Counted from the whole stretch's first letter, positions 6,726-63,214 are shown. The stretch is DNA of 63,214 nt, filler included, from Vermamoeba vermiformis (GCA_045837725.1; 5 parts of 5 records of this genome joined end to end with filler, not necessarily neighbours in it); one strand, 5' to 3'. The notes: generated by a model not told the origin, from the sequence alone. Numbers and translations are program-made.

Positions 6726-6830
6726 TTGTAACAATAGTAAAAATTGGCCAGAAATATGTGCAGTTGTAAAAATACTTTTTTACTTCGAATTTAAAGTTCT
6801 GACCAAAGACCACGATTGTAAATCAAAACT

Positions 6831-9800
6831 ATGCCGCCAAAAAGAAAAAGGGTCGCTAATGCTACTGAAGAAGATGAAGGCCCAACGAAAAAGCAAAAGT
6901 TGATTTCCACGAAATCGAAGTCAAATTTGAATCAAGCCCAGATAATTCCAAAAAATACCACAACTGCTGGTAAATCAATAGGAATATCCTGGTCATCAGA
7001 TTTGCCTCCAGAAATATTATTCAGAATTTTTACGGTTGGAAAATTTAAACCAAAAGATCTTCGAAAGGCCAGCCAAGTTTGCTGGTCATGGAACAGTTGT
7101 CTGAAAGATGAATCATTCGGATGGGCTCCCTTTACAACAATAACTATGGCTATAATATGGGACGGTAAGATCTTGGCCTCGATCTTGGTCTTTTTTTCGC
7201 AAGCTGATATTTTATTCAGATCATCGCAAGACTGATCAAACTCCACCGCAAAACTTCTACTTTGGGTATGCCACGCCCCAACCCTATAGTGGTCCCAAAC
7301 CGACTGAACTTAAAGTAATCAACACCCCGCACTACCTCTCTCAAAACGGTTACAGCAACTACGGTACCGAAGTGATTCAAGTATGAGATTAAATTAATTT
7401 AAGACGCATATGTTTATTAATAATATGCTACAGTTGCTTAAAAACGGCAAACAATGCGCTCTGGGCTACATAACTTCCGGAGTTTTGCCGCGACATCTCC
7501 GAGATCTCGAGAGCAATATTTACGAGTACCGTTTGAAACAAAATATTCAGCCAGTGAATATGGGGTACTATAATTATGGGGCCACTAGCACTAGTACCCA
7601 GTATGATATCAAGATTGAAATTAACTACTCTCGGTAAGGACCTTAAGATACACACTTGAACGACCGTTCAATAATAGTCACTATTTTTGCAGCCTCGAAA
7701 ACAAGATTCGCAAGAAAGAAAAGATTCCGCTTGACTTGCTCTCGGCGACTATTCTTCGTACCGCGAAAGTGTTGCAAGACTGCCCAGCCTTCGAACACCA
7801 TGCGTACCTCCCAAAGCTCTTCAATCCAGACGACACTTTCACGCCCACTGTAAGACCTTTGAATCTTTGAATTTACGTTGTTTGACTGACCAATCAAATT
7901 TGGCAGGTACTTCCGGTCATCACTGAGCAACCGAAAGAAATTGTCAATGTGACATTGCACCAGTATCAAATTGAAGCGATCAACTGGATGGTCAACATCG
8001 AGAAAGAATGTCACAAAGGCTTTTCAGTCTCGCCGCTGATTCCATCTAAGTCCGGAAGCATCTTCCTCAATTGTACTCCCACTGGACGCGAGCTCGTGTT
8101 GTTGGAAGACACACCGAAGCACAACCTGACGTACAAGCCGAAAGGAGGAGTGATCGCTGATGAGATGGGCCTTGGAAAGACTGTTGAAGGTAACACCTGA
8201 CTGTCATATATTAATCTCATAGTCTACGTGCTCATTCGTTATTGTGATAGTTATTGGTCTGATTCTGTCCAATCCCAAGCCTGACAGTCTGAACGAGCGT
8301 GACACGTCGCCGTACTTTGCGAGCAAAGCGACACTTGTATTGTGTCCGAATCAGTTGGTGCATCAGTGGAACGCAGAGATTGAGAAGTACTCTGAGCAGA
8401 AACTGACCGTGATTCAACTCACGACCATCGTGCAAGTCAAGAAGCATACTTATCAAGAGATTATGGATGCTGGTACGCTGCAGCCAATAATCCGCTGAAA
8501 TACTCCTTTAACTAACCACGTCATTTTTAGACGTCATTATTGTCACGCATAACTTGCTTCGAAACAACAACTACTTGTCATTTGCGGACAACTGGGAGTC
8601 AAAGCTTCAAGTAAGTCGTACACTTGTTCCTTTATAATAATAGGTCTGGAGGAGCTAACGACATTCGCGCTTTTAGAAAGTGAAAGATAAAGACGCCAGT
8701 ACCATCAGCGGAATTATTCTGAACCACTTCCATTGGTATCGCGTCATCATCGATGAAGGCCACGAAGTTATTGATGAACTGAAAATCAGAAGTATAGATG
8801 CGGCATAATGAACTAATATCGTACTTATTACTAATATTTCCGTTCACAGCTGACCTGTGCTCGATGCAACGAGATTTCAATTGGTACATGACCGGCACGC
8901 CTTTCCCAACGCTGTAAGTCTGATTCAAGTCGATATTTCCGCGGCCACTGATCATCTTCACAGGCAATCTTTGGAACATGCTCGAGAGTTCCTTGGCATA
9001 ATGTTGCCTAGAAATCCTTCCCACGAGCTGTTAACATTTGATGGTGGCAGGATGTACGACCACCTGTTCCAGCGCCCTACTACTGAAGTTTACGTCGAGT
9101 AAGTCCATACTTGAAGAGTCCTAAGTCCGTCTAATCGCTTTATAGGGCTGCTCTCGATGACATAATGATCAACAACCTCGTGTGGAGAAACACAAAAGTA
9201 CGTGAATGTCAATTTTACTAATGATGTACTGTGCTAACATCTGAAAACAGAAAAGCGTCAAAAAAGAATACGAAATGGTCAAGACCAAGCACAAACTGGT
9301 CTTGTTGTCGTTGTCGCCGACAGAACAAGCAGTGTACGACGACTTCACGGCTGAAAAGAACTATTACGCCATCAAATCTGATCCTCGTCGCTTGTTGTGC
9401 ACCAAGCTCGACAGTGCATGGGGCAATACATTGACTGAAATCAGAGAATACTGGAAGGACGTGAAGAAGACTCGCATTGCTGAGAAGAAAGCGATTGTGA
9501 AAGAGCTCGAGAAAGGCTTCAACAACAAAGCCCTGGAAGAAATGCACCACAGCACTCGTCGTGCCATCAGCAACAGATTTGAACGAGAACGAGCCTCCGT
9601 GCAAAGAATTATTGATAAGGACAAGGCGTTGTTGAAGCAGTACGAGGCTATTGTAAGTGTCACCAAAAATATGATGATGTTTGGCGGTTTGAGAGGTGTC
9701 TCACATGTACGAGCAGGACCCACCAAAGAAGCTGCAAAAGAACTCATTTGAATGGCTGCTCGAACAGTACGGCACAAAGACAGCTAATTTGATTCAGTTC

Positions 9801-10571
9801 TTGCGCAAGCTATTTGAGAAAGACGAAACAGCACGTGCCATTGTGTTCTCTCAGGTACGCTCTGAATAACGACTGTTTTTTGAGTCTGACCTGCTTATTC
9901 GTTTAGTTCCCTGACTACTTGAAAACACTTCAGCGCGTGTTAGAGGACCATGACATTCCCACGAGCAGTGTCAAAGGGTAAGTGCCAACCAATCAATACA
10001 CCTCCTTCCTTAAACAGTTGTTAATCACACTGTTCGCAGCAATGTGCACAAGAAGTCGAAAGAGCTCGGCAAGTTCAAAGCAGAAGAGTCCGATGTGAAA
10101 GTCGTGCTTCTGAGCTTGACCAAAGTGGCATCAGGAATGAACTTGATCGAAGCCAGTCACGTCATATTGATGGGTACATTATAATTAGTAGTCAATACAG
10201 CATATTATTGATCGAGCACACTGATTGGTTGTTTTTCAGATCCACATCCAGGCACACGCGAAGAAGCAGAAGCGTACGAGACACAAGCAGTTGGTCGTGC
10301 CTATCGTCAAGGACAAACCAAAGATGTGACAGTGATCAGATTCATCATCAAAGACAGTGTCGAACACACTCTTTATGTTCGGAACTGTGCCAACGAGAAA
10401 GGTAACAATCCATCAAAACGATTTGCTTGGCTTCATATTCTAACCGCTCTATTATTATTTGTAGAGGAAAAAGTGACATTGACGAACACTCCTTCAAAAA
10501 TGCTCGTACGAAGCAACAGTTTCAGCGTACTGCTTGCCAACAGCCAAGAGTTGTGTCGTAGTCAAGAATAA
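6831..10571 (+). CDS. F-box + SNF2-family (Rad5/Rad16/SHPRH-like) helicase, copy A
   Basis: MPPKRKR NLS; F-box WSSDLPPEILFRIF..SQVCWSWN; LHQYQIEAINWM; motif I GGVIADEMGLGKT; Ia ATLVLCPNQLVHQW; II RVIIDEGHE; III WYMTGTPF; IVFSQF; SGMNLIEASHVILMDP; QAVGRAYRQGQ. Confidence 0.9.
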
Positions 10572-10641
10572 CAGAAAATCACATGGAATATAATTCAATC
10601 ATAAAATTACAGCTTTATTTTTTGATTTTGTTCCGACACGA

Positions 10642-13404
10642 TTATTGTTCGGGGCTCGGTTTTTTTTGTTCGTACATTTTCAACTTGCCCTTCAGCTCGA
10701 AGATTTCGTTCTTCAAAATCATATTCTCGTGATAGAACTTCTCGTACATCGAGCGATAATCATCGGTTGTGGTCTCTTTGAGTTTTTTGTTCTCACTCTT
10801 GAGTTCTTTGATCTGATCACTCATCGCTCTCACATTGCTCGCAAGATTGGCCATTTCATCTTCGAACGATGAGCCTCCTGTTGACATTGGCACGCTACCA
10901 CTCTTGCCTGCACTGCCATTGAAGCTTCCCGTTGTGGTGCCTTTGTTGGTCGACTTCTTGCGATCACTCGACGATGCAAACTTCTTGGTGTAAGATCTGA
11001 TCACAGCTTGAAGTTGTGCTTCGTTCATTTGTCGGAGCTCTTCTTCAGTGTACGAGAACAACAGTTTGATCTTTGGAATGAACAACACACTGAGCGAGGT
11101 CATTGTCAAGAACAAGATGCAGCAGCACAACAGTGCGAAGCGAACAATGACATCTGTCACCAAGAAGATGACTGCGACAAAGATAACGATGAAACCAAAG
11201 TTGTACATCTAAATAGGTGCAACTGTTAATACTCTGAAATACATGAGAGTCGAACAAAGATGATACTTACAGCCCAACCAATGTACTTGGCTTCGTTGTA
11301 GAGTGTCAATCGAAGCTTGCTCACGAGTGCTGAGATGATGATGCCAAATATCATCACGATACCGTTGAACACGAGCAAAGTGATGCCAGTGGGGAAGTGG
11401 AACAAGCAGAATGAGAACTGTTGATCACCTTCATTCTGGAACTCGAATGAAGCAGGTTGAAGTCCCATCATCACAGCCAAGATGACACACTCACCCAACA
11501 AGATCACTCCAACACCAAAGCCAACATCACGATCAGTGTATTTGACAAGTTGAAGTGACTTGTTCGAGAACAACAAATAGATGCGTCCTGTCTTTGCGAA
11601 CAAAGATCTGAAGATAACGTTGGTCAGTAATGTGTTGACACGTGTCACAAGTGTCAAAGTGTCAAACACTCACCCGAACAACAATGCAAAGCCAACAGGA
11701 AGCATCCAAATGAACAAATTGCAACCAATCATCGTGTTTGAGACGAATGCAATGACTGAGCCGAACATCAACATGCCTCCAATGCACATTGAGATCAAGA
11801 ACACACCACTCGATGCGATGATCACCTTTGACTTGCGACTGTAGGTAAACACGTTAGAGATGAAAAGGAACACATTAATAATACGTACTACTTGAGAGTG
11901 ACAATCAAATAGAAGAAGGTGCACATGACACAAAGTCCGCTCAACACCCACATGGCGATCTGAAGGTCAACTCCGACTTCTTTGTAGGACGCTGATTGGA
12001 TGAAGGATATTAGCATCAGTTATCTCTACAACACTATTAGTGCACTTACAAGGACGGATCCAGTTCTCCCAGATCTGTTCGTTCGCTTGGACCCACTGAC
12101 AAGCAACGTCGAAGACCGAAGTATTGACATACAAGTTAGCCAAGAGTTCGGTCATCTGATTGCCGTTCAATGAATACGACTGTGCTAAGAAAGCAGTTTC
12201 AGGACTGTACTCGGGCAGATTTGTCCACATCACTTTGCCGAGAATTTCAGGAGGATAATACACAGCTAATCAAAGTTCGATGAGTACACTTATTATACGC
12301 CACCGTTGCATATAAGATGCACTTACTGTCGTTCGGCAGTTGAATACGCATCAAGCTATAGACGCTGTCCAAAGTGTGCGGTCGCCAGAAATAAAATAAC
12401 ATGGGCTCTTTGCGGGCATAACGCTCCTTCAAGACATCAGCCATCTCGCCTTCACCACTCAAGAACTGGATGTTGAGGGAGTAATTTTGGTCCTTGATGA
12501 TTCGTTCTTCGACCTCCATCCAGTTTCGATCACCAAGAATGAGCGTATTGTTGAAGTAACCAGCGACACGTGGATCCGAGAAGTCACCGAACAATGCCTC
12601 GGGGACGTCATCGAGGACATATCTAGGCACGTACCAGCCTATAAATATGAGATTTAGTTAATAGGGTAAAGTAATAAACGGAGTTGATGAAATTGTTTTG
12701 TCTCGATCAGTTCTGCTCAAAGTAAGCGTCAAAATAGAGAGGTGATAAATCAAGATGAGGTAAGTTCAATACGTTATATGTGACACAAGGTTACGATAAA
12801 TCGACCATGCAACAATTCACAAACAAAAACTGTCGATCCAACTTACCGACTTGACCAACCATGCCGAGAGGGCCGGCAGAAGTAATAGTCTTGTCTTGAA
12901 TAATGTATTGTTGCTCTTGTTTTACTCGCGATGACGGCCTATCGGTAAACTGTTAGTGTGCTTTGTTGGAGATCTAGAAGTTGTGCACAAATAATAATTA
13001 TCAATGTAGTTGATACTAAAGGTCGTCTTACCAGTATTCCAATATTATATGAACCTCTCCTGTCGACATTCTGTCCCATGCTTCACCGCTATCGTCGATC
13101 GCGACAATTTCATTCCGTACACCGATTGCTTCGTCCAATAAAATGCTGGCGATGTAAGCATTCAAGTACGAACTCGACCAAGGGTTTAATACAATTTTTA
13201 CAGGGTTTCTGGCAGCATAGCCTAAAATTTTGTAAATTAACGAGATGCGTCACCTTTTAGCGGCTGGATCTACATACCTGCAGGGCGAGGTCTATTCAAG
13301 CAGGGTCCTCTTGCACTATACTGTGTAGTAGTATCTTGAGCAATGATGGTCGCGAACAAAGCTACCAGCACAAGACCACCTAAGATGCGTAAAGTAGCGG
13401 ACAT
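10642..13404 (-). CDS. Class C (GABA-B-like, 7tm_3) GPCR with ProX/OpuAC-type binding-protein ectodomain, paralog 1
   Basis: Signal peptide MSATLRILGGLVLVALF; ectodomain PWSSSYLNAYIASILLDE..ILEYW..GWYVPRY..PMLFYFWRPH; 7TM SLFAKTGRIYLLF, YNEAKYIGWA, FIPK; coiled-coil tail. Confidence 0.85.
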
Positions 13405-14070
13405 CGTTCGCGGCACTGATCTGTGTACGAATTGTGGGCTTTACGTGGAAGTTAAAATGTTAAATTAAAATATTAACCAGAAAATCAGAAACATTGGGAA
13501 CCTATCAATCAGTCATATCGTGTCGTTCGGCGGTATTTTTTTCCAAGTTAGGAAATTTGTTGATCCATGCTTGTGAATTACATAATTTCAGCATCTCGTG
13601 TTAAGATTATAACAAGAACACATAAATAGTTTCGTTTAGTCTCTAAGGTATGAAACAATCGCTGCACGAGTAACAAACGAAGATGAGACGTTGATCTTTT
13701 AGTATTCGAGAAGATAAAATACTAGAATGCTGAACATGTGTGTATCATACTTAAAATAATCGATAGACTACCAACATACTTCGATATTAATATTACTAAA
13801 TTCAAAAATAAAAATTGCAAATACCAAAACTTGCCAATACTTGAAATTCTAATAATGTTCAAAACACGCGATGTTAGGGTAATTGTTGATATAATTTGCT
13901 ATTTAAATTCGAACACATACCATCTGAGGACTTGCCCGTACCTGGTGGAAAATTTTGTGGTATAATGAATACAAGTCACTATTGTTCAACAACGCATACT
14001 TAATGCAGCTATGTTGCACTTGCGATAAATAAAATTACAAATTTATTTTCTTTTAAAAATTCGCGTCATG

Positions 14071-16860
14071 TTATTGGTCGGGCTTGCTTTGTTCGTACAC
14101 CTTGATTTTACCCTTCAATTCAAATATTTCATTCTTCAATATCATATTTTCATGGTAATATCGTTCGTACAAGGCTCGATAATCTTCGCTTGTGGTCTCT
14201 TTGAGCTTTTTGTTCTCACTCTTGAGTTCTTTGATCTGATCACTCATCGCTCTCACATTGCTCGCAAGATTGGCCATTTCATCTTCGAATGACGAGCCTC
14301 CTGTTGACATTGGCACACTGCCACTCTTGCCTGCACTGCCATTGAAACTTCCCGTGGTCGTGCCTTTGTTGGTTGACTTCTTGCGACCACTCGACGATGC
14401 AAACTTCTTGGTGTATGAGCGAATCACAGCTTGAAGTTGTGCTTCGTTCATTTGTCTGAGCTCTTCTTCAGTGTACGAGAACAACAATTTGATCTTTGGA
14501 ATGAACAACACACTGAGCGAGGTCATTGTCAAGAACAAGATGCAGCAGCACAACAAAGCGTATCGCACGACAACGTCAGGCACCAAAAAGATAACAGCGA
14601 CAAAGATAACGATGAAACCAAAGTTGTACATCTAAATAGGTTTTGTTAGCTATCGGAGGAAGTTGAAAGATTGCATGAGCGAACTTACGGCCCAACCAAT
14701 GTATTTGGCTTCGTTGTAGAGTGTCAGTCGAAGCTTGCTCACGAGTGCTGAAATGATGATGCCGAACACCATCACGATACCGTTGAACACGAGCAAAGTG
14801 ATGCCAGTGGGGAAGTGGAACAAGCAGAATGAGAACTGTTGATCACCTTCGTTCTGGAACTCGAATGAAGCAGGTTGAAGTCCCATCATCACAGCCAAGA
14901 TGACACACTCACCCAACAAGATCACTCCAACACCAAAGCCAACATCACGATCAGTGTATTTGACAAGTTGAAGTGACTTGTTCGAGAACAGCAAATAGAT
15001 GCGTCCTGTCTTGGCGAACAATGATCTGAAGATAATGTTGGTCAGTAATGCTTTGACACGTGTCACAAGTGTCAAAATGTCAAAGTGTCAAACACTCACC
15101 CAAACAACAACGCAAAGCCAACAGGAAGCATCCAAATGAACAAGTTGCAGCCAATATGGGTATTCGATACGAATGCTGCGACTGAGCCGAACATCAACAT
15201 GCCTCCAATGCACATTGAGATCAAGAACACACCACTCGATGCGATGATCACCTTTGACTTGCGACTGTAGGTTAACACGTTAGACACGAAAAGGAACACG
15301 TTAATAATACGTACTATTTGGCAGTCACAGCGAGATAGAAAACTGAGACACAGAAACAAATGCCTGTTAAGACCCACATGGCGATCTGAAGATCCAATCC
15401 TACTTCTTTGAACGACGCTTGACAGTAGGTGTGAGCTTTTGAACCAAGCACATATAATATTATTTTGACTTACAAGGATGGACCCAGTTCTCCCAGATAT
15501 GTTCGTTGTTCTTGACCCAATCACACGCCGTGTCGAAGATAGATCGGGTTTGATATAATTTGGCCAAGAGCTCTGTCATTTGATTACCATTAAGAGCGAA
15601 TGACTGTGCTAAGAAAGCTGTTTCAGGACTGTACTCAGGTAGGTCTGCCCACATAATCTTGCCAAGAATTTCAGGAGGGTAGTAGATCGCTGGATCGAAA
15701 GGTTAGGACAATTTGTGTAGGACCATAAGACACGCTATATACTTACAGTCGTTAGGTAGCTGAATACGCATCAAGTTAAAGATGCTTTCCAACGTATGAG
15801 GCTTCCAGAAGTAAAACAACATTTGCTCCTTGCGCGCGTATCGTTCGATGAGCATTTCGGTCATTTCAATTTCACCGCTCAACAACTGAATGTTAAGTGA
15901 GAAGTTTTGATCTTTGATGATGTTAGCTTCAACGTCCAGCCAAGTCGGATCACCAACAATCAGAGTGTTGTTGAAGTACTCGGCAACATTTGGATCCGAG
16001 AAGTCACCGAACAATGCTTTGGGGACGTCATCGAGGACATATCTAGGCACGTACCAGCCTATTAATATGAGATTTAGTTAATAGGCGTTGAATTAAAAAC
16101 GTGGTTTCCAAATAGATAACGGTCCAGTTCAATTTTAAATTCGCGTCGTTGAAATTGCTTGTTCAAGTCGCGAGCACGTGGTCATTAATTAACGACGTGA
16201 TGTCTAACAGATTGACATGGCAACCTGGCGAGATACGAAATTTCCAGAATTTCACCGCCCGACTTACCGGCTTGCCCAACTGTACCAAGAGGTCCTGCAG
16301 ACAATATAGTTCCATCATTGTAAATGTATTTTTCTTCCTGGACGCGTTGAGTAGAAGGCCTGTCAATACCAACGAATTAAATTTTAATAGTCAAACTTCA
16401 AAATTCTTGCTTTTCCATTTAAGGCAAAAAGTAAGGGGGACAGCTCGCAGGGTTCCCTAAATTATATAGTAATACTCACCAGTACTCCAGCAATGCATGT
16501 ATGTTGCCTTGCGATACTTGGTCCCACGAATCTGCTCCGTCGTTGATCGTGACCAACTCATTTCGTACACCGACTGCTTCGTCCAATATAATGTTAGCGA
16601 TATATGCACCAATTACAGAGCTGGACCACGTTCTCATAGCAAGTTTGACAGGGTTCCTAGCAGCATAGCCTAGCAACAAATGTCAGAATCATTTCTTCAA
16701 ACTGCTGTCACACGCAGATCCGCATACCAGCAGGGCGAGGTCTATTTAGACAAGCTCCTCGCGCACTATATGGTGCAGCAGTCTCCTGAGCGACTGCCAT
16801 TGACAGGTAGACTACGAAGGCGAGTGCTGCAGTGATTATGAAACGAGTTGATCTTGCCAT
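14071..16860 (-). CDS. Class C GPCR with ProX/OpuAC-type ectodomain, paralog 2 (tandem duplicate)
   Basis: MARSTRFIITAALAF signal peptide; TWSSSVIGAYIANIILDE..LLEYW, QMLFYFWKPH; 7TM exons almost identical to paralog 1. Confidence 0.85.
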
Positions 16861-17562
16861 CTCGTTGGAGATCAATTTAGATCGGGACTTGTGTGGTGCT
16901 CTGTGCGACGAGTAAATGAAATTAATGCAGTTGGGGAATAATCTGATATGTTGTTGTTGATCACAGTACACAGTGCTGTGCGTCAGATTGCTATTAAAGG
17001 AAATTCGTTTAGCCGTGTGCACGCAAGATCTGCCTGAGATTGAATTATCAGAAAGGAGTTGTGATACTAAATTATTATTGACTTACAGTTGCGTTGAGCC
17101 CTTCCGTTTACCTTCACAAACGCGCAACTTTTTGCAACGGAAACCAATAAAGCGATAAAAGCAATAATGATGATTAAATTAATGATAAATTGGCCACTTT
17201 TTGCGAATATTATAATTATGTTATAATTATAATTGGCAGAATCTTGCCTGAATTTAATAGCCGCCATCCAATTTCAAAAAGCCCAGTAAGTTCATAATAT
17301 TATATTCCTATCAACAATCTTCTCTATTGCCGTGCGACGAATTTAATTTTTCTCTATTAATGCGAGAAGCACGAGAGGCAAAATGAAACCGTTACTCGTT
17401 ATTTAGATCTTCTTCGCCAATGCACGTGGAGCTGGGCTTACTGCACGCATTGTTAACTATGACGTCATTGTCACTCATACTGAATGGTGAATGGTGCTTC
17501 AAAAGGTTTAAGTGAAAATGATTGTCCTTCCTTTTACCTATTTATTCTAGAAGATAGCACAG

Positions 17563-24717: not shown

Positions 24718-24950
24718 TCTATGAGACTAAATAATAGTCTAAAAAAATATATAATACTATAATCAGAGGTGTTTCTATTGTGTATTGTTACAAATTGTCT
24801 TGAGAGTTTCTACCGAAATTTATTTTTGCTTAGGCGATGACAAACACAGCGAGATGGTCATTTTAGAAATGGTATAAAATATAGTTATAGAGTTTAAGGC
24901 TGAGCCGACATGAATTTTGATCTTCACCGATGATTCTTGACTAAGTGCAG

Positions 24951-27900
24951 CTACTGGGAGTTAGCGAGCAGCACACCAAAACTGTTGCTTCGCACGAGCT
25001 TTTTTGAAGGAGTGTTCGTCAATGTCACTTTTTCCTCTACAAATAATAATAGAGCGGTTAGAATATGAAGCCAAACATAATCGTTTTGATGGATTGTTAC
25101 CTTTCTCGTTGGCACAGTTCCGAACATAAAGAGTGTGTTCGACACTGTCTTTGATGATGAATCTGATCACTGTTACATCTTTGGTTTGTCCTTGACGATA
25201 GGCACGACCAACTGCTTGTGTCTCGTACGCTTCTGCTTCTTCGCGCGTGCCTGGATGTGGATCTGAAAACAAACCTATCAGTGAGTGCTCGAGTAATAAT
25301 GCTCTATTGACCACTAATTATAACGTACCCATCAATATGACGTGACTGGCTTCGATCAAGTTCATTCCTGATGCCACTTTGGTCAAGCTCAGAAGCACGA
25401 CTTTCACATCGGACTCTTCTGCTTTGAACTTGCCGAGCTCTTTCGACTTCTTGTGCACATTGCTGCGAACACAGTGTGATTAATAAATGTTTAAGGAGGT
25501 GTATTGATTGATTGGCACTTACCCTTTGACACTGCTCGTGGGAATGTCATGGTCCTCTAACACGCGTTGCAACGTGCGTAAGTAGTCAGGGAACTAAATG
25601 AATAAACAAGTCAGACTCAAAGTGATGTGTTATTCAGCGCGTACCTGAGAGAAGACAATGGCGCGTGCTGTTTCGTCTTTCTCGAACAACTTGCGCAGGA
25701 AGCGAATCAAGCTGGCTGTCTTTGTGCCGTACTGTTCGAGTAGCCATTCGAACGAGTTCTTTTGCAGCTTTTTTGGTGGCTCCTGCTCGCACATGTGAGA
25801 CACCTGTCAAACCTCATCATATTTTTGGCGACACTTACAATGGCCTCGTACATCGCTAACAGGTTTTCAGCTGTTTCAATGTCGCGCTCTGCTTTTGTCT
25901 TTTCTATCTCATATCGACCGAGAAGAGCACGACGAGTGCTGTGATGCATTTCTCCCAGGGCTTTGCTTTTCGAGTCTTTATCAATCTGTTTCACAATCGC
26001 TTTCTTCTCAGCAATGCGAGTCTTCTTTGCATCCTTCCAGTATTCTCTGATTTCAGTCAATGTATTGCCCCATGAGCTGTCGAGCTTGGTGCACAACAAG
26101 CGACGAGGATCGGCCTTTGGGTTGTAGCGGTACTTCTCGGTTCCAAGATCGTTGTAAATGGCTTGCTCTGTTGGCGACAACGACAACAAGATCACTTGAC
26201 GTTTGGTCTTGACCATTTCGTACTCTTTTTTGACGCTTTTCTATTCTCAGAAGTTAGCACAGTACATCATTAGTAAAATTGACATTCACGTACTTTTGTG
26301 TTTCTCCACACGAGGTTGTTGATCATTATGTCATCGAGAGCAGCCCTATACAGAATTAGATAACAATAGACTCGTCAGTGTATGTTACGTACTCCACATA
26401 AACTTCGGTCTTTGGTCGACGGAAGATACTGCATTGAAATTTGGCGTTCCAGAATGTCGAGAGCTCGTGATCTTTGCTTCGAGGCAGTGTCATTCCCAGA
26501 AATTCTCGCGCACGCTCCAAAGAATGCCTGCAATGCGTTTAACGATAAGCATGAGCGTGTCTCTTGCACTTACAGCGTTGGGAAGGGAGTGCCAGTCATG
26601 TACCAATTGAAGTCCCGTTGCAACGCATTCAAATCGCCTTGTCAATATTCAATCAGTATCGCTGCAATGTTGTCTACAGTAACGACGTACCTGATCGATC
26701 TATAATCTCGTGGCCTTCATCAATGATGATGCGATACCAATGGAAGTGGTTCAAAATGATTCCTTTAACGCCACTAGGATCTTTATCTTTCACTTTCTAA
26801 TGGCTGAATTAGTGACGTTCGTCAACTTGAATAATAACGATCTTACCTCGAGCTTTGACGCCCAATTTTCAGCAAATTTGAGGTAGTTGTTGTTTTGCAG
26901 CAAGTTATGCGTGACAATAATGACGTCTAAAAGCGAGGACTCGTTAGCCTAAAAAAGTTTAATTTTCAGAACTCGTACCAGCATCCATGATCTGCTCGTA
27001 GGTGTACTTCTTGACTTGCACGATGGTTGCGAGTTGAATCACGGTCAGTTTCTGCTCAGAGTACTTCTCAATCTCTGCGTTCCACTGATGCACCAACTGA
27101 TTCGGACACAACACAAGTGTCGCTTTGCTTGCAAAGTACGGTGATGTGTCACGCTCGTTCAGACTGTCAGGCTTGGGATTGGACAGAATCAGACCAATGA
27201 CTATCGCAATAATGCATGAGCACGTAGACTATGAGACGGATAAATGACAGTCAGGTGTTACCTTCAACAGTCTTTCCAAGGCCCATCTCATCGGCGATCA
27301 CTCCTCCTTTCGGTGTGTACGTCAGATTGTGTTCTGCTGCGTTCTCACGAAGCACGAGCTCCCGTCCAGTTGGAGTTGGATTCAATAAGATGCTTCCGCA
27401 GTCAGACGGGATCAACGGCGACACCGACACCCCTTTGTGACACTCTTTCTCGATGTTTACCATCCAGTTGATCGCTTCAATCTGATACTGGTGCAACTTG
27501 ACGTTGACAATTTCTTTCGGTTGCTCAGTAATGACCGGAAGTACCTGCAAATAATGTCAAAAAACCGCCATCAGACAAAGTGGTCTAATTATCGCTTAGT
27601 ATGTTCATTAAAATTGCTCCACGTAGCCAACTTACCGTAGGAGTGAATGTGTCCTCAGGCTTGAAGATGCGTGAGAGGTAATCGGCCTTAAATGCCAGGC
27701 AGTCTTGCAGTACCTTTGATTTGTTGAGAATGTAGGCCGAGATTAAGTCCGTAGGAAATTTTTGTTTCTTGCGGATCTTGTTTTCGAGCCTAGAATTTTA
27801 GTCAAGTACGTTAATACTCAGTTGAATCACAGTATTAATGTTACCTGTAATAGTTTATCTTGACATGCAGATGGTAGACTTCGGTACTGTACATATAGTA

Positions 27901-28607
27901 CCTCTGAACCTTGACGAGCTCGTAGTCATAAATGTCGTCGGCCACATCCGTCAACCAGCAAATAGGGTAGGTTGATATTGTAGCAAGAGCGCATTGCTTG
28001 CCATCACAAAGCAACTAAGTTAAGGTAAATATCATCCCCTGCAATTGGTCATTGGATCCTTACTTGAAGTACTTCGGTGCCCGTGCTGGCGTAACCTTTA
28101 ACGTAAGATGGAGTTGGGATCACTCTAAAAGAAGTAGGAGCGGGACCACGATACTCAGCATATGGAGCTGAGTAGTATGGATCGGGGTCTTTTTGTGCCT
28201 TCTTGTGGTCTGCGAAGACGTCAGCGCCAAAAATCGGATCTGTTTTCCAATAAAAACTTACCGTCCCATATAATTGAAAGAGGGAGGTTAATAATAGTGG
28301 CCCAGCCAAATGCTTCGTCTTTTAAGCAGGCATTCCACGACCAACAAACTTGGCTTGCTCGGCGCAGATCTTGTGTGTTGAACTTGTTGATGGTAAAAAT
28401 TCTAAATAATATTTCCGGCGGTATGTAATGGGACCACGATGATTCCATACTCTCTTCGTTATTTTGTAGCTTCTTTGGGGTTGTCTTAGCGGCATCCACC
28501 TTGGAAACTGATTTCGTCTTCGATTTCGGAGAAATCAGCTTCTGCTTCTTGGTGGGGCTCTTGTTTTTATCCGAAGCGCTAACTCCTCTCTTTCTTTTTG
28601 GTGGCAT
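24951..28607 (-). CDS. F-box + SNF2-family helicase, copy B (inverted paralog of 6831-10571)
   Basis: MPPKRKR; F-box WSHYIPPEILFRIF; GGVIADEMGLGKT; IIDEGHE; QAVGRAYRQGQ; matching exon layout; ends 7 codons earlier at a TAG. Confidence 0.9.
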
Positions 28608-42198: not shown

Positions 42199-42232
42199 GT
42201 ACGACTTTCCTGGCTTTCGAAATTACATCTAT

Positions 42233-42267
42233 CGAAAGGTATTGTAAAAGTGCATTTGGGTACATTT
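42233..42267 (+). repeat. Left terminal inverted repeat
   Basis: CGAAAGGTATTGTAAAAGTGCATTTGGGTACATTT versus reverse complement of 49264-49298 CGAAAAGTATTGTAAAAACGCATTTGAGTAAATTT. Confidence 0.88.
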
Positions 42268-42270
42268 AGT

Positions 42271-43314
42271 TTATTTACGGTACATAAACTTTTGCTTTGC
42301 TCTTCTATTATTGTATTGAGGGCGGCCCAGGCTTGGTCTTCCAATAGAGTTGCGTATCACTCTAGGTCGTCCACGCTTTCCTTTGCGCACTGCATAGTGA
42401 AGAGCTTGCTTGTCCTGGTGAGTAATTTCAGTTTGTTCCAGCTCCATTGCCCATCCACTATAAGGACCAACAGATTCTTTGGATACATCTTCTGTTGGTA
42501 CATAGGGAAGCTGTCCCCCTGGTCCTTTCCACCAAATCTTCTTTCCACTGGAGTCAAAGGCACGTTGGGAGTCTTGTTTGCCATACACCTTCAGGAAATC
42601 ATTCTCAAACCAAGTTTTCATTTGAGCATCTTGCATGTTGTAGTGATCTGGTAACTTGGCAATGAATTCCATCACAATTGCATGTAGAGCATCCAACAGA
42701 GTTTGCAAAAACTGAGGTTCGTTCAGGAGGCTAGCAGGAGTGAAAGGTGGAATGTTTGCCTTATGGAGAGTTTCAGCACGCAGATAGTTTCCAACTCCAG
42801 GAAAGAAGTCTTGATCCAGCATCAATACACAGAGAGGAGTAGTAGCCAGGTTCTTGCGGGTAGCTTTCAACTTCTGTTGCAGGTGCTTTTTGAATGCTGA
42901 TGGTTCAAGGAAGAAGTCATGTGAAAGAGTGTCAGGTTTGTAATCCACATATATAACAATGTGGTTGCTGGGCTTGTGGAAGAGTCCAATGACCAAGCCA
43001 TCTGCACGATGGAAAGCAATAGCCACAAATTTGCTTTCAGCTTCATACTGTTCAGGGGTAAGAAACACAACTTGTCCTTTCATGCTGAGAGAGATGTAGA
43101 GAGTGTGCTTAAGTTGACGTTTTTGCCGCAGCTTGATAATAAGCCACTTTCCAATGGCAGAGGCAGAGAGAGTATACTGTCCATTCATGGTAGGTAGGGG
43201 CTCTGAAGAAGTAGGTACTTTGTATGGACCAGTGGATATTGAGTTGAACTTGTGGCCCTTTGCTTTGGCATTGATGGCACTTGCATCTAGCTTGTTTTCA
43301 AGGTATTCTGGCAT
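42271..43314 (-). CDS. NEIL1-like (Fpg/Nei) DNA glycosylase/AP lyase, intronless, C-terminal AT-hook
   Basis: N-terminal MPEYLE (catalytic Pro2/Glu3); SASAIGK; H2TH PLCVLMLDQDFFPGVGNYLRAETLHKANIPPF; zincless-finger-like LKVYG..DSSGKKIWWKGPGG; tail KRGRPR. Confidence 0.92.
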   Translation of the reverse strand: MPEYLENKLDASAINAKAKGHKFNSISTGPYKVPTSSEPLPTMNGQYTLSASAIGKWLIIKLRQKRQLKHTLYISLSMKGQVVFLTPEQYEAESKFVAIAFHRADGLVIGLFHKPSNHIVIYVDYKPDTLSHDFFLEPSAFKKHLQQKLKATRKNLATTPLCVLMLDQDFFPGVGNYLRAETLHKANIPPFTPASLLNEPQFLQTLLDALHAIVMEFIAKLPDHYNMQDAQMKTWFENDFLKVYGKQDSQRAFDSSGKKIWWKGPGGQLPYVPTEDVSKESVGPYSGWAMELEQTEITHQDKQALHYAVRKGKRGRPRVIRNSIGRPSLGRPQYNNRRAKQKFMYRK

Positions 43315-43492: not shown

Positions 43493-44948
43493 TTATTTGA
43501 ATTTCGAGAAGGTTTGCACTACTGCACTGAATGCCTCTTGAGACTCAGCTTGCTGTTGCTGTTGTAACAACAACATGAAATTAGCCTGTTGTTGTGCCAT
43601 TGCATGCCGATGGTGCACTTGTTGAAGCTCTAGCAGTTTTTGAAGCTGGAATGGTACGTTGAACAGTGGAGTGACATTGTGCGTGGCAGGTTCCAAAGCA
43701 ATCGGATTTGGAGAACAATCTTGATTAGAAAGAGACGGTGCATTTTGAAGAGCACTATCACTCAATGGTTGGGTTGGTTTGAGCAGCGTCTCTGGCTTGA
43801 GCTTTGGAGCCTCCATCACTTTCTTTTGTTGCTTTGGCTTTGGCTTGACACTAACAGAGCTCTCCGAGTCAGAGGATGAGGAGTCAGGTAATATCTTTGG
43901 AGCTGGCTTGCGCTCCTTTCTTCGACGCAGTGCCTGAGGGATTGCTTGCTTTAGCTCTAAGTTCAAGGTTATTAGATGATACTACTGATGTTTTTGATTA
44001 TACCTTTTTTGATTACTGGCACACTCTTCACAGGAGGAGAACGAGAAGAACGAGGTGGTTGGGTACGAGTTGCACTCTTTGGATGCATTTCTTTGGGCTT
44101 TAATTTGGACTTTGCCGGAGATAACTTTTTTTTCTACAAAGGTGAATAAGCTTTTATCTTGATAGATAGCTAGGTTACCTTTGCACTGATGTACTCCTTG
44201 AATAATATGTCCAGTTGGGGCTGTTGCCCAGAGCTTGTTTTGCCGTGGATTGTCAGGACCTCGCTGAACTTGACCTCGATGACCTTTGCTAGAGTTGGGT
44301 CGGCAAGAAGGACTTTGTTGTATTGTTTGTTTCTCTTAATGAGAAGGACAGTGTGGAGCCCAGCATTTGATTTCAAGGCAACCAAGTCTCCTGCCTCGAT
44401 GCAGAAGTTGTCCACTCTTCGAGTCACTTTGTAATAACACTTCTTTTCCCAAGGCTCTCCAAAGTAAATGAAGTACTCAGTGATGTCCTCTGCAGTGAGA
44501 GTTAACTATTGTAGAAGTGTACAAACAGTAGGACTTACTCTTGTCTTGTTCGGATGAAACTGGATCGGCGACAGGCTTTTCTTGGCCGTCCAAGCTAATG
44601 GCTTTATCTTCTATAATAATGCATTATAATATTATATTTTAGATAGTAGTGTAATTATTTATTACCTATAGTATTGAGGAGTTGATCTGAGCTTTTTTCT
44701 TTGGATCGAGCTAGATTTGAATCATCGGCAGAATTGTCAGCTATTGAAAAATGAAATTAAGCTTACATTAAGCTAATGTATATTATTTTACTATTATATC
44801 CTAATTATTAAAGGTAATATCTCATACCTAATGACTTCCGAGATGGATTCAGATCTGAGGAATCAGTTTCAGTCTTTTGCTCGGGAGGGCTTGCATCTTC
44901 GGGGGTTGTTGGTACTTCAATAATAGAGTTTTCTGGGTTATTAGCCAT
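43493..44948 (-). CDS. Transposon cargo protein with BAH/SH3-barrel-like domain and Q-rich C-terminus
   Basis: Spliced from MANNPENSIIE; central KCYYKVTRRVDNFCIEAGDLVALKSN..IEVKFSEVLTI; Lys/Pro/Ser-rich linker; Q-rich end. Confidence 0.55.
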
Positions 44949-46030
44949 TGTTGTGGTTATCTAATGACTTCCGAGCAACTTCTGATTTTGTTCTCCCAAA
45001 AAAGGAAGTTACCAGGGCTTTGGGCACGAGCCAATTTACCAAGCCATTTTCTTATTACTATCAACAAGATAACCCACAACTACTACAGCTACTATTAATA
45101 ATAACATCAATATCATTGGTCATTTTATTCAAAACACTATGGAGATTAATTCAAGGTAAGCCGGGTCAGATTTGATTTTCCTCCCTCTTCGGAAGTCATT
45201 AGAAATTATTCTTTTGAGTTATTAATAATTAAAAGGGCTTTAAAGTACAGCTCTAATAATATCCTAATGAAGGAATTGACAATTTAATGAAAAAAGTGAT
45301 CGGCACAATTTCATATCTGCCTCGCAAGTCATTTCTAATAATTATTCAGTGCTGTTAATATTATATGATGATATTAATATAGTATATAATGCACTTATGG
45401 GCTTTGTTTTGTTTATGCTTTGTTTATAGCTTATCTTTAATGCCAACTACCCCGTGCCCTCAGTAAAATGTTCGGCAACCAAGTTAAATGCACTTGTAAC
45501 TCCATATACAGCATTCAGATAACTCAGAAAAGATAGATAAATGAATATATTGTCCTATTTGACATTTGTAGCCTTTGTATGGCTTCTCAAGTTCTGCCGG
45601 CAGTCAGATCCAACTTTAACCACTTTCCAACACTACTTTGCCGAACTTCCTAAAGAGTAATTATATGAAGTATTAATTGTGCATAATATAAACGTGCAAT
45701 TACTTATCAAATGAAAAATCTTGACTGGTAGTTACAGTTCGGTTGTTGAGTCCTCCCATTGCGCAACTGTTTGCCGAACAAAACTAACTTAATATATGCA
45801 CTTAATACACCACATTATGCCTAATTCAATGATATTCGACTGTCTGAAAAATGACTCAGCGATGATGTCGAAACAAACTTTGCACCAACTTTTGCACCTC
45901 TGGTCTACGACTTTGCCGAACACTATTTCATTGATAATTGAATATTGTTAATCATTTATAGTTTATATATTATATTGTTGGCTCGTTGAAAAATCACTGC
46001 TCAAGTTAGTGACTGACTTGTCTTTTTTAG

Positions 46031-49000
46031 ATTTCAAGGATTCCTGTGGGGCTCAGCTGGTAGGACTTGGTGAGCTTTCTCATTAGTAGTACTAACCTAG
46101 AAACTAGGAATGAAAGATCTGTGCACTATTGAAACTGTTGCCCTGGTGCTTCGCCTAACACTGCAGTGTATTCCTGATTTGCAGCTGACTAGTAATTTCT
46201 TTCGCTTGCTTGCAACCTGGATTCAATTTGCACCATTATCAAGCTCAGCATTACATCAATTGAAAGTTGATTTAATTGAAGCTCTTGGACCAGTAGCTGG
46301 ATGGACTCCGTGCCAATCATACGTTTCTATTGGAGCAATACTGTCTGCTGCTATCAAAACCTTGCCCACAGCTGAAGCAACCCTTTTTTGCACTTCTGAA
46401 GAGCACAGATCAAATTGCCGCTGCCCCTTAACTATCAAACAATTCAACAACCCAACTGTTTATGTTGCTGAGAAACTTTCTGACAGTACGCTCTCCGTTC
46501 AGGCTTCAATTCACCATTTGATAGACTATTGCCAAAAAATGCCTATGCCGTGTGAATTTTGTGGAGAATTTGCAGTGGAACATCGTAAGAAACTCCAGTG
46601 ATGTCAAAGATATATTCTTACAAATGTGTTAGGAACAATGCACCTTCCAACCGTTCTCACAGTGGAGTTGGGCAGATATAAGAGACAGTTCACCAATATT
46701 AATTTACAAATTGAACCAACTCTCCACTTTGGAGATAGCACATATAGTCTACTAAGTGCTTTGATGTGTGATGGGGTGCACACCACGTGTTACTTTCTTA
46801 ACAACAACGCCACATACTTTTATGATGGGATGCAAAACAATGGTATAGCCTATCGAGTGAATGAAGATATCAATGTTAGCAAAAACAAACAATACATTGA
46901 TCATTTGGTGTACATTAAGCAGCAGGTCTGTTGACATTTGTCTGTATTCCAGTATTGACAATCTAAATAGGACCTGGCAACTAAGAAAGAAGTTAATGGA
47001 ATTGCATTGTTTCAATCCATTATATCAAAAGCTGAAGAGGAGCCACTCATCTCTCGCTCATTTTTCAGAGAGCTCACAGCCGTGAAAGTTCCCTCTCAGA
47101 AAGCCCAACATGCAAAGAAAGACAAACTAGTGAGTGAACAGTCAATAACAAAGGGTATGTTTTCGCTTCTAAAAAAACACCTCTAACTTGTTTACACCAG
47201 TTCAACAAGATAGCTGTTGTAATGCAAGGTGCACTTCATTGTTTACGTATCAACAGATTCTCAAATGTCGCAAAATGGTAGCTGACATGAATGAAAGTGA
47301 AAAAACAACTTGGCTATTGAAATTTATGGGAACCAACATGAATATATCAGATCCTTCAGTTGTGTTTTTGATCAATGGAATGTCAGTTTGTCAGTTGGCT
47401 TTCTGTCGGATCTATGGTGTAGCCGTTCAGAAAGTGATTCACTGCAAGCAAATGCACCTTAATGGCAGTACTGCAACTCTACATGGTAATTACTTTCGAG
47501 TATATGATACTCCAAAGAGAGACTCTGTTGCAGCATGGATTTCAGCTTATTGTGAAACCTATGGAGACTATGTTCCTACAAAGGATGAAATTCACTTACC
47601 ATCTCATTTAACGTAAGTTTGTATATAAAATAGAATATGGTTGTAATTACTAGCTTCAGAAACAAAGAGTGGTACAAACTTTTTGCAGAAGAGTGCAAAC
47701 TGCAACGGCCAACTGAAGATATTCCCAGTTTTGAGACATTCAAGCAAGTGAGGCACAAGCAATTTAAGGTACATTAACTTGAATCCTATTAATACTAATT
47801 ATCAATTTAGAATGTTAAAAGACCGAAAGAAACCAGACTGGGAAAGTGCTCAACATGCCTATTAATTAAACAGAAGCGACTTCAATCTGGTCTGTGTGAA
47901 AAAACTCTTTCAGCTCTTAAGCAACAAATGCAAGATCATATAGCCTATATTACCAGAGATAGACAAGGTTATCGAGTTCGAACAGATATTGCTATCAAGC
48001 AACCTCACCTCAAGATGAGTGTCATTACGGACAAAAGTGGCTCATTTTGGTTGCCTCATTTTCATCCAATGCCAAAAGAATGGACAAATGTAACTTTCCT
48101 ACCTGTCAGTTTTGTTGGCTTCATCAACCATGGTCTGAACAAGAGAGAATTGGTGTTTTTCAAGGAAACAGATTATGTAGCAGATTCAGACTTTTACATC
48201 TCACTGCTTTTCCATCACCTAAAAGAGTCACTTCTCACTCTAGACCCAGGCAAGAGACCAAGAACTCTTTACTTGCAAGTAGATAACAGTGCCGCAGAAG
48301 GAAAGAACCAGTATCTGCTACAGTTTGCAGCAGCTTTAGTGCACCATAACTGGTTCGATGAAATATTCATTCACTACCTTCAACCTGGACATACCCATGA
48401 AGACATTGATAGATTGTTTCAGTTATTCCACACTTACTTTCGATGGAAAGTTATAGAAACTATGGACCAAGCAGTGGAATTTGCCAGAGCCATCTATCCA
48501 AAAGACATTCTCATTCGTGAATTACAATGGCCAGTATATTCATGGAAGAAATGGTTTCTTGGCTTTTCACAGTCAATAAGTGGACATAAGGACAAGTATG
48601 CATTTTGGATCAAACCTGGACTTGACAACACTCCTTCTCTTTTGTATAAGAAACAGTCACTGGATAATGAATGGACGGAAGTTAAAGATGAACTTTTCAG
48701 CGCAGCTCCATCTGGTCAGCCTTCTGTGATACAACCCACTTGCCCTTCTGCCGATTTGATTCAAACTATTGTTAGCAAGGCTCAGAAATTCTTGTCAAAA
48801 CAAGTAAGCTTTCAACTTTGAAACCGTTTCTTAAGGCTAGTTTAGGCAATTGAATATTTCGAAGCTCTGGCACAATACAAACCGATTCAAAGTTCTGAAG
48901 CAATGTTCTCCATTGGGCAAGTGAAACCAGAAGTGCCTGCCCCAATAATTAGTACTAGCTCAAAACCAGAGGTAGAAGTGTTAACCAAAAAGCGCAAACG

Positions 49001-49241
49001 AGATTTCACTCAGGGTATGCTGTTGGCAACTATTTGAACCAATACTAATTCTTTTCAAGACCAAGAGGAATGGATTGTCAAAAGAGTAGTTGACCATAGG
49101 AAGAATGGAAACAGATTAGAATGGTTGGTTCTGTGGGAAAATGGAGAGCAATCGTGGGAACCACGAAATTGCTTCATTGATGCTGACCAAAGCAAAAACC
49201 AGGAATGGGCAGAGTATGAACAGAAAAGAAGGAAAAAATAA
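46031..49241 (+). CDS. USP-like cysteine peptidase - Sola-type DDD transposase - chromodomain fusion (5' exons probably start near 45440)
   Basis: FQGFLWG..DLCTIET (Cys box), CEFC, LPTVLTVEL, GVHTTCYF..YFYDGM (His/Asp box). In-frame splicing into CCNARC, LGKCSTC, VITDKS, LYLQVDNSAAEGKN, GHTHEDIDRLF. Last exon EWIVKRVVDHRK..EWLVLWENGEQSWEP. Confidence 0.82.
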
Positions 49242-49263: not shown

Positions 49264-49298
49264 AAATTTACTCAAATGCGTTTTTACAATACTTTTCG
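49264..49298 (-). repeat. Right terminal inverted repeat
   Basis: Reverse complement matches 42233-42267 at 30/35 positions; abuts the gap. Confidence 0.88.
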
Positions 49299-49624: not shown

Positions 49625-51629
49625 TTATGCAAATTGAATGTCTTCTTCCGACTTAATTTCAATTACTGGCTGAGGTCCTTCTCGTCTGCCCAACGGATCA
49701 GCAACGAGTACCTCCTTTGGGAACAATACGCCCGTCTTCTTTTGGATCACAGTGATAGGAGTTTGGTAAGTCTTGAATCTACCGTACGGTTGGTTATATT
49801 CGGGGCCTTCAAGGTAGTTTCTGATGAGCTTATCCTGCGTCTGGATGTACGCGGTTGCCTACCAAGTTTTAGCATTGTCTGTTTAAACGTAAGATAGTAC
49901 TTACGAACAACTTGTTGTTGTGAAGAGTAACGACCACTTTCCAAAACTCGCTTGGAATTTGCACACCATCGTAGTAGCCGTCAACAGGACTCAGCACTGG
50001 GCCAGTGAAGACAGTGACAAGGAAATTGTTGTCAGTTGCGCGATTGAGGACGTAGTTCTCGAGCTCGAGCCACGTCTTCTGATTCAAGTCCTTGTGCTGA
50101 GGAGAGCAGTTGGTGAAGTGGAAGGTGTCTTCATTCGCATTAGTCACTTCGCCGTCATCTCCCCAGCATGGATCAAGTCTGCGAACCAAGTGACCACGAT
50201 CGAACATCAAACCTTCCTAATTAGGTAAAGAAGTTAATCCCTGACAACGACAAAGCAGTCTTAATATCCGTACCTTACGAGCGTTGGAGTAAAAAGTGTT
50301 TGACAACTGGTCTGCAAGAGGAATGCGCGGGTCGTACTTCCACACGTCGCGTCTGTGCACTTGAACCAGTTTTCTTCCGTCGATGTTGACTGCGGTGAAG
50401 AACGCAAGTCTTCGGTCCTTATTGAACACAATGCTGAAGTGCTCGTACTTGAACTCAGTGCCATTCTCGTGCATCGCAAGTTGGTCTTGTAAGTCGGGGC
50501 GAACAGTTGGCAACGGAACTTCGTGCTGCAAGAACGCGGGATCGTATCCGGATCGTCCATTCAGTTCGTCCTCGGAGAAAACGCGTTCGAGATTTCGAGG
50601 TGGTGCGGTTAAGAGAGGAGCAGGTGGAGCAGGCAAGGGTCGCATTATTTGACCGTGGAACAATCTGTTGGCAATCTCGACGATCTTAGCACTCTCCACA
50701 GCAACATTGGCAACACCATAGACGCCACCGTAGTGCAGGCCAATAGCTCTTCCAGTGACTAGCGACAGAATCACTGAGCCACTGCTGCCTCCGAGAGTCG
50801 TTGCGTCGTGGAAGATGTCAGTGGGATGGTGCAGCATTGTGTCGTCCTTGTAAGCGTAGCCAGGCGACAGTCTCTTGACGTCGTAGATGTCGTCAAAGTA
50901 GTACGACATTTCTTCATCAGGATTGCGAGAGTCGTAGGCAGGATGGCCAATGACGACTATCGGATGCTTCTTAGGCAAATGACCGACGACAGCGCCGGGC
51001 TCCAAAGGAATAGGACTGCGAGGCGGATGGTTTACCGGCCATGCCAAGCGAAGAATTGCGATATCCACGCCGTAATCAGCTTCAGCTGCTGAAGCAATAT
51101 AGAGCACCTCAGCAATTCCTGCCTAAACGGGAAAGTGTAAGGAAGGAAATTTCATCGAGTTTGCAATGCCTACCTCTTCGGTCACGAGTGACAGATGCTC
51201 AGCAGTGAAGTTCACTTTGACTGTGATCCCACGCTGAATTTCTCTATTGGTCGCGCAAAAACATAGCGCCACGTGTCTGTTAGTGACCATGATGTTGTCG
51301 TGGATGAGCCATCCGGTGCCAAAGTACTTCATCAATTTGATTTTTGGGTTGTGAGACACAGCGTAGATTCTGCCCACGGACCGCGTGAAGTTCTTCACCA
51401 TGTAGAAAGCGAGCTCGACTTGCTTTTGAAACGGACCAAGTGGGACAGTAGGGAAAGTATCATTTTGGATCTTCACCGTGGGTCTGCCTCGTGCGTAGAT
51501 GATGGCCTCACGTTTATTTTCGTCGCTTTCCACTATTAATCATGAGCATTAGTTAAACGCTAGGCGAAGATGAATTACTTGCGTACATTGCGGCGGGCGA
51601 GCTGGTTTAAAGCTGCTGTTGCGTTCCAT
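49625..51629 (-). CDS. Trypsin-like serine protease fused to DNA/RNA non-specific (NucA/EndoG, beta-beta-alpha-Me) endonuclease, bacterial-type
   Basis: EAII..RP..IQND; triad TNRHV / VDIAILRL / HDATTLGGSSGS; linker GYDPAFL; nuclease YEHFS..RRLAFFTAVNIDG, FDRGHLVRRLDPCWG, TFHFTNCSPQH..LNQKTWLELE, IPSEFWKVVV; four GT-AG introns. Confidence 0.92.
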
Positions 51630-62933: not shown

Positions 62934-63017
62934 TTATGACCCAAAGTGGTCCCGTGTGGATAAGTGTCAGCGACTTTGCGGAGGAAAGGCCCGACCATGA
63001 CTTTGCAAAAATTTTTT

Positions 63018-63214
63018 GGGTTAGGGTTAGGGTTAGGGTTAGGGTTAGGGTTAGGGTTAGGGTTAGGGTTAGGGTTAGGGTTAGGGTTAGGGTTAGGGTT
63101 AGGGTTAGGGTTAGGGTTAGGGTTAGGGTTAGGGTTAGGGTTAGGGTTAGGGTTAGGGTTAGGGTTAGGGTTAGGGTTAGGGTTAGGGTTAGGGTTAGGG
63201 TTAGGGTTAGGGTT
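63018..63214 (+). repeat. Telomeric array (TTAGGG)n, chromosome end
   Basis: About 32 perfect TTAGGG units to the end of the window, G-rich strand running 5'->3' toward the end. Confidence 0.98.

Follow-up and report, generated by a model that had tools for sequence, protein, structure and literature searches.

Proteases acting on ubiquitin or SUMO have been described on DDE/D transposases of several kinds, including Ginger1, MULE elements with Ulp1 and a Trichomonas transposase_11 joined to a C19 peptidase, the last being one named case (PMC2836005, partial text). Ginger1 transposases bear Ulp1, OTU and PHD domains, and one family adds a histone-reading PHD (PMC2836005, same portion). Helitrons encode VTD and OTU deubiquitinases that retain their catalytic residues, have been shown to be active and are proposed to protect transposition proteins from being degraded (PMC9741609, in part). 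DNA transposons of fungi, in 11 lineages, carry TET/JBP genes proposed to counter silencing by methylation (PMC12730594, in part), and a C-terminal chromodomain is present on the integrases of Gypsy chromoviruses and other Gypsy elements (PMC12477816 and PMC6839031, excerpts). Sola elements have a DDD transposase, terminal inverted repeats (TIRs), a 4-bp target-site duplication (TSD) and a size of 2-9 kb (PMC10741241, in part). Exchangeable cargo is known for Sola2 (PMC3627910, in part), and in Sola1-1_Ec32 the opposite strand encodes an accessory DNA methyltransferase (PMC12477816, in part). Each of these systems is a precedent for one part of the locus described here.

That locus occupies positions 46031-49241 of a 63,214-nucleotide stretch of DNA (the window; five records joined with filler) from the 43-Mb assembly of Vermamoeba vermiformis (GCA_045837725.1). 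Its predicted product consists, in order, of a USP-like peptidase, a linker, a Sola-type DDD transposase (DUF7869) and a chromodomain. Like Ginger1, MULE-Ulp1 and the Trichomonas protein, it joins a putative ubiquitin or SUMO protease to a DDE/D transposase, but the published peptidase-bearing transposases belong to other superfamilies and the Ginger1 peptidase is C-terminal (PMC2836005, in part), whereas here the peptidase is N-terminal, a highly divergent USP and spread over a multi-family clade. Helitrons also have a transposon-encoded deubiquitinase, putative in the present case, but they are rolling-circle elements and use another peptidase fold (PMC9741609, in part). The C-terminal chromodomain recalls chromoviruses; these, however, are LTR retrotransposons, whereas the present element is a TIR DNA transposon with an incomplete aromatic cage and no sign of targeting.

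The gene lies within an inverted repeat pair (42233-42267 and 49264-49298) that brackets a transposon of about 7.07 kb, extending from 42231 to at least 49298 (family 1). The left TIR (42231-42267, plus strand) starts with ATCG at the left end of the element, and the right TIR (49264-49298, plus strand) has its final two bases inside an assembly gap; TIR length is about 35 bp (about 35-45 bp). A DNA search of the genome with the transposase exon gave 13 matches, five at about 100%, one of them the window's own contig, and eight at 71-72%. Family 1 accordingly comprises five copies of the 7.07-kb element that are 99.5-100% alike, besides a sixth, partial copy at a contig start, and family 2 is a 6.1-kb sister element in eight copies whose ends are common with family 1; the right TIR coincides with the contig end in 6 of these 13 copies (C173, C234, C70, C198, C186 and C163), so the copy numbers are lower bounds. 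All seven copies with both flanks have a perfect 4-bp TSD of varying sequence, and none has a 5-bp TSD. Because its copies are nearly identical and flanked by 4-bp TSDs, the element is a recently mobile cut-and-paste DNA transposon. A protein search of the genome with the transposase (29 matches) adds family 3 (L023 and L024; 38% at the amino-acid level), family 4 (L025) and more distant lineages.

Several other features of the surroundings were observed. TTAGGG telomeric arrays are present at 63015-63214 of the window and at L025:6453-6810; the window copy is about 14 kb from the former and the family-4 copy a few kb from the latter, and most other copies are internal. A gene at 49869-51539 (minus strand), with GC above its surroundings, has a trypsin-like peptidase and a non-specific endonuclease domain (Pfam) and looks like a bacterial-type fusion. 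Large diverged duplications occupy 6800-17000 and 24900-28600: a 3.4-kb tandem pair lies at about 10650-16800, and the segment at about 6800-10550 recurs in inverted orientation at 24900-28600.

The model of the spliced gene (plus strand) has eight GT-AG introns of 42-48 nt, no internal stop and 948 codons plus a stop, a minimum, as the start codon lies upstream of 46031. The first identified coding exon (46031-46059) contains a short conserved QGF.WG motif; in family 2 and the metagenome relative P0017 a Met immediately precedes this first conserved motif. The peptidase follows in two exons, one (46108-46584) with helices, Cys pairs of putative zinc-binding fingers and the putative catalytic Cys (codon 46122), the other (46633-46925) forming the USP palm, as judged from the fold of a family-3 homologue, with the putative catalytic His (46779) and Asp (46824). 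A stop-free, Met-free linker exon (46971-47154) leads to the Cys-rich N-terminal exons of the transposase (47201-47768, comprising 47201-47612 and 47660-47768), which are presumed to bind DNA, and these to the DUF7869 catalytic exon (47811-48803; Asp codons 48030, 48282 and 48408). A second linker exon with a basic NLS-like stretch (48846-49014) precedes the C-terminal chromodomain exon (49060-49241). The linker exon is flanked by intron 3 (46926-46970, 45 nt, GT..AG, phase 0) and intron 4 (47155-47200, 46 nt, GT..AG, phase 1). The preliminary description had placed introns after YIKQQ and SITK; both are present with GT-AG borders, and the model is open throughout.

Comparison among families supports translation of these exons as one protein. 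Family 2, which is 73% identical at the amino-acid level in the transposase exon, has introns at equivalent places. When families 1 and 2 are compared, synonymous changes approach saturation but amino-acid sites remain conserved throughout the peptidase, linker and transposase exons, with pN/pS of 0.30/0.76 in the Cys exon, 0.33/0.73 in the His exon, 0.49/0.72 in the linker and 0.18/0.82 in the DDD exon. The linker exons of the two families align with a score of 88.5, whereas 1000 shuffles never exceeded 40, and identity is 20/54 in exon 8 and 41/59 in exon 9, the chromodomain. Retention of either intron 3 or intron 4 leads to a stop; the linker exon is devoid of Met, and in the exon that follows, conserved transposase residues already precede the first Met. 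In family 4, an intron-free ORF (L025:2531-3367) contains the His box together with the start of the transposase, and a further ORF (L025:875-1990) the DDD core together with the chromodomain. The only indel in the gene among five family-1 copies is intronic, and in family 2 two of the eight copies have lost 7-8 nt of the His exon.

Because of the equivalent exon layout in family 2, the conserved linker and the family-4 ORF joining His box and transposase, the peptidase, transposase and chromodomain are best interpreted as a single polypeptide produced by predicted splicing, in agreement with the preliminary description. The fusion might instead be a prediction artefact, the peptidase and transposase being separate or alternatively spliced products, given that the donor site of intron 3 is less usual and that a transcript retaining this intron would yield a free peptidase. 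RNA reads bearing the same species label (three runs) are about 90-95% alike to the window and cover a neighbouring host gene but essentially none of the element, and are uninformative on its expression. Separate products are nonetheless highly improbable, as the exons are only 45 nt apart, the linker between them is conserved and Met-free, and in family 4 the junction falls within one intron-free ORF.

The catalytic core of this predicted polypeptide matches Pfam DUF7869 (E 4.7e-39). Of its DDD triad, the second and third Asp are invariant in all nine aligned rows and the first in all eight rows that cover it. By eye, the Asp-x6-Lys-Asn and His-x5-Asp spacings agree with the Sola2 alignment in part 1 of 2 of supplement S10 of PMC3627910. 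The element agrees with Sola in its DDD triad, 4-bp TSD, TIRs and size (PMC10741241, in part), and its ATCG/AACG termini resemble the AACCG termini of Sola1-1_Ec32 (PMC12477816, in part). The core can thus be assigned, as the preliminary description had it, to a Sola-type transposase because of its triad, TSD and motif spacing. It does not belong to Sola2: next to the second and third Asp, its residues are unlike those common to the Sola2 rows in that part of the supplement.

In a tree of 20 transposase cores, the seven USP-bearing rows cluster with modest support (82/69), well apart from an Ulp1-bearing lineage. This second lineage of DUF7869 transposases has an N-terminal Ulp1 (C48) peptidase (L034:1887-4987, minus strand; L035:3-2426, plus strand; L036). 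In L035 Ulp1 and transposase share one 808-aa ORF, and L034 also has two chromodomain stretches, with a homeodomain ORF nearby.

The N-terminal domain is less readily classified. The peptidase exons match no PDB sequence and no Pfam UCH profile, although a domain this divergent and interrupted by introns may escape the latter. Structural modeling was informative for the half containing the His box. A model of the His exon of family 3 (9 sequences, pLDDT 87) was searched against 48,161 chains, and the top 15 were all USP-family (Z 7.5-5.8, 88-98 residues, rmsd 2.9-3.8), led by USP25 (Z 7.5, rmsd 2.9, 93 aligned), USP9X (7.4), USP1 (7.4) and USP7 (7.1), although the top Z falls below the tool's caution line of 8. 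Foldseek ranked USP7/USP15 first for the same model (probability 1.0, E 5e-3), with 0 PDB matches at E 0.001, and a second Foldseek search placed a viral USP first (E 4.7e-4). The modeling, which concerns the family-3 homologue rather than the window's own exon, supports a USP/C19-type palm fold for the His-box half. A model of the Cys half, made on family 2 from a shallow alignment of 3 sequences, reached a pLDDT of 65, and structural searches with it gave no meaningful match. A C19 fold, one of the points to be checked in the preliminary description, thus finds support in one half of the domain and no fold match in the other.

A His-exon profile from three families, compared with 1.84 billion proteins, gave nine matches: four close exon fragments, two unannotated proteins aligned over the His box, the protein P0008 (E 2.8e-5) and two repeat-rich sequences that are probably false hits. 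P0008 has a USP-like Cys and His box, and the nearest Atlas clusters to its N-terminal USP-like repeat include viral UCH families (0.88-0.91) and a picornaviral leader protease (0.92), a lead only; the Cys-half profile does not align to P0008. The family-4 ORF had no usable match in Atlas, and a weak search with the His-box profile among long proteins (length window 759-2165) found none.

Catalytic residues provide a second line of evidence. The Cys, His and Asp are in the order expected for C19, and they are kept across families that are only 20-30% identical in the peptidase domain. Across 44 scanned loci, the Cys is present in six of seven Cys-exon matches, the seventh being without that stretch, while nine His-exon matches have the His in every case and the Asp in eight (Asn in one); families 3 and 4 were used to build the profiles and so match by construction. 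The canonical USP Cys box contains an Asn for which families 1 and 2 show no clear counterpart. A catalytically dead ubiquitin-binding or scaffolding module would account for the divergent Cys and His boxes, the lack of a Pfam UCH match and the pseudo-USPs (PAN2 and spliceosomal entries) among the structural matches, but conservation of all three residues at such low identity makes this quite improbable. The domain represents a minimal and highly divergent USP subfamily that escapes Pfam, and from its residues and half-domain model we infer an active, minimal USP-type enzyme.

Such a domain might alternatively act on its own polypeptide. The preliminary description had suggested self-processing, in which the protease would cleave itself off the transposase like viral papain-like proteases. 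A minimal papain-like domain placed N-terminally, ahead of a variable linker, would suit such a role, and coronavirus papain-like proteases do occur in the structural list (Z 5.3 and below). Cellular USPs rank above them, however, and the linker exons of families 1 and 2 have no Gly-Gly site; self-processing is very unlikely.

At the other end of the protein, the chromodomain is real, as judged from sequence matches. The best PDB match is CBX5 (E 1.3e-4), followed by further HP1/CDY entries and also cpSRP43; the Pfam Chromo match (E 0.0016) is short of the curated cut-off. The preliminary description had proposed a chromodomain with an aromatic cage in EW..W..SWEP. The domain stands, but the cage does so only in part: of the three positions in the CBX5 alignment that we take to form the cage, two are aromatic (both Trp) and the third is a Gly in a three-residue deletion, while the Trp of SWEP aligns with a CBX5 Trp outside the cage. 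The complete three-residue cage of an HP1-type methyl-lysine reader is therefore not present. Families 1, 2 and 4 and 6 of 24 metagenome loci have the chromodomain, family 3 gave no chromodomain match, and the first cage aromatic is missing in metagenome loci L054 and L055.

These features bear on whether the chromodomain, like that of chromoviruses, recognizes a methylated histone and steers the element towards silent chromatin when it inserts. Its C-terminal position, its best matches to HP1/CDY-type proteins, its conservation between families 1 and 2 and the occurrence of chromodomains in the separate Ulp1-bearing lineage would all fit such steering. Insertion sites were compared by CpG observed/expected ratio (o/e) within 300 nt: two of seven have depleted flanks (0.38 and 0.57), as steering would predict, but five are host-like (0.93-1.40), and CpG-depleted repeats are not favored in this small sample. 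None of the seven sites is crossed by a long ORF. Given also the missing third aromatic, the loss of the first in two metagenome loci and the lack of a family-3 match, histone-mark-guided insertion, as put forward in the preliminary description, is unlikely. The chromodomain is more plausibly a dispensable chromatin-contact module than a canonical methyl-lysine reader.

The ends and copies of the element, together with a swappable cargo, a divergent accessory gene and phased CpG motifs, extend the preliminary description. Next to the left TIR, an intron-free gene (42271-43314, minus strand) encodes a 347-aa NEIL1-like Fpg/Nei DNA glycosylase that starts Met-Pro-Glu. It has the N-terminal Pro-Glu, glycosylase domain and H2TH of this group (Pfam H2TH E 1e-7, Fapy_DNA_glyco E 1.3e-5), and NEIL1 is its best PDB match (E 9.5e-11). 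All six genome matches to this gene are inside family-1 elements. In the same slot, family 3 has a probable TET/JBP-like dioxygenase gene (L023:1916-2929), as indicated by weak matches to Pfam Tet_JBP (E 0.034) and, among only three PDB matches, to CcTet (E 0.68) and a second TET entry (E 1.4). Family 2 has neither cargo, and the slot is swappable among sister families. Family 3 thereby resembles the fungal TET/JBP transposons in having a TET/JBP-like dioxygenase inside a TIR element, whereas family 1 has a NEIL1-like glycosylase instead; the words Sola, ubiquitin and protease are absent from the available part of PMC12730594. TET/JBP-like 2OG-Fe(II) oxygenase genes form an expanded family in this genome (24 matches).

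The accessory gene (43493-44948, minus strand) is head-to-head with the transposase gene; a five-exon model gives 362 aa with a Gln-rich end. It has counterparts in sister families, with similarity to family 2, and two of its ORFs have no significant Pfam match. Between these divergent genes lie two sets of CpG-containing motifs. Set A (44830-45333) comprises four 12-bp copies, two direct and two inverted, in pairs each 133 nt apart (4 matches against 0.88 expected), with similar pairs in family 2 and L041. Set B (45637-45921, plus strand) comprises three exact 10-bp copies 133 and 142 nt apart, the family-2 spacing being 141-142 nt. Family 2 and L041 preserve the 133 and 141-142 nt spacing. 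Within the window the 7-base core motif shows no enrichment by itself; only the longer motifs and their spacing stand out. The CpG motifs at 44830-45921 are retained despite CpG loss elsewhere in the element, and their spacing is nucleosome-scale.

CpG o/e is 0.22-0.74 in 11 transposon coding stretches, the NEIL1-like gene included, versus 0.98-1.27 in seven host stretches; the TET-like gene is not depleted (1.31). Because transposon CpGs are depleted and the genome has a DNMT1-like gene (E 1e-72), the host probably methylates CpGs of transposons. The family carrying the NEIL1-like gene is itself CpG-depleted, so this cargo has not prevented CpG loss. The differing DNA-repair and DNA-demethylation cargo of sister elements may help them to evade host silencing. 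One could extend this to a multi-part machine countering DNMT1-type methylation, in which the chromodomain would hold the transposase on silenced chromatin, the USP would clear ubiquitin marks through which methylation is recruited or sustained, the accessory protein would bind the CpG motifs phased at 133/142 nt in the divergent promoter, and the TET/JBP-like or NEIL1-like cargo would erase or repair modified cytosines on element DNA. Such a coordinated role is speculative, and we consider it decidedly doubtful.

Relatives occur beyond this genome. Of 24 metagenome loci with the transposase, the His exon is upstream in six and the Cys exon in four, several loci being broken by contig ends or frameshifted. 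Loci with the same domain order indicate that the architecture is not confined to this assembly. No relative was found on viral contigs, and neither of the two longer transposase relatives found has a Pfam peptidase or chromodomain match. Relatives of 4.6-4.7 kb (L026:3788-8383, L030:1652-6291 and L031:3309-8049) have TIRs and a head-to-head accessory gene, with no USP or chromodomain match. The metagenome loci L053-L055 have an internal deletion that leaves the accessory gene, a Cys-box remnant, the transposase end and a chromodomain without the first aromatic.

Taken together, these observations make it rather probable that the locus is the autonomous gene of a Sola-type element with a tethered minimal USP-fold protease, a dispensable chromodomain and exchangeable cargo, in a CpG-methylating host. 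One spliced mRNA would give one protein of about 950 aa. In line with established transposase chemistry, the DDD core would cut at the TIRs and insert with a 4-nt stagger. The N-terminal cysteine protease, modeled in one half, probably retains the ability to remove ubiquitin or a ubiquitin-like tag. As it is tethered, it could act on the transpososome itself, or on adjoining chromatin or repair proteins; with these putative substrates, the transposase would be spared degradation, or access and repair would be eased. The chromodomain would provide chromatin contact, and the element would carry an exchangeable base-modification or repair gene within a host that appears to methylate transposon CpGs.

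The preliminary description had called the three-part architecture unusual. A literature search found no USP or chromodomain fusion reported for Sola, the founding Sola paper, subscription papers and Repbase entries lying outside that search, and the portions seen of PMC5751038, PMC4455052, PMC3985635, PMC6839031 and 10.1101/2021.09.26.461848 contain nothing on a USP-transposase-chromodomain architecture. The architecture has more precedent than the preliminary description implied, since C19 on another transposase and Ulp1 plus PHD in Ginger1 were already published (PMC2836005, in part). A NEIL1-like glycosylase as transposon cargo was likewise not found in the literature search.

The locus addresses the question of why many transposases carry ubiquitin or SUMO proteases. 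It adds a divergent minimal USP subfamily to these proteases and a NEIL1-like glycosylase to the known cargo. In this one genome the transposase family is represented by two lineages, one bearing USP and the other Ulp1; both have chromodomains, intact and recently mobile copies are present, and in a compact element of 6-7 kb the role of each module is testable by point mutation.
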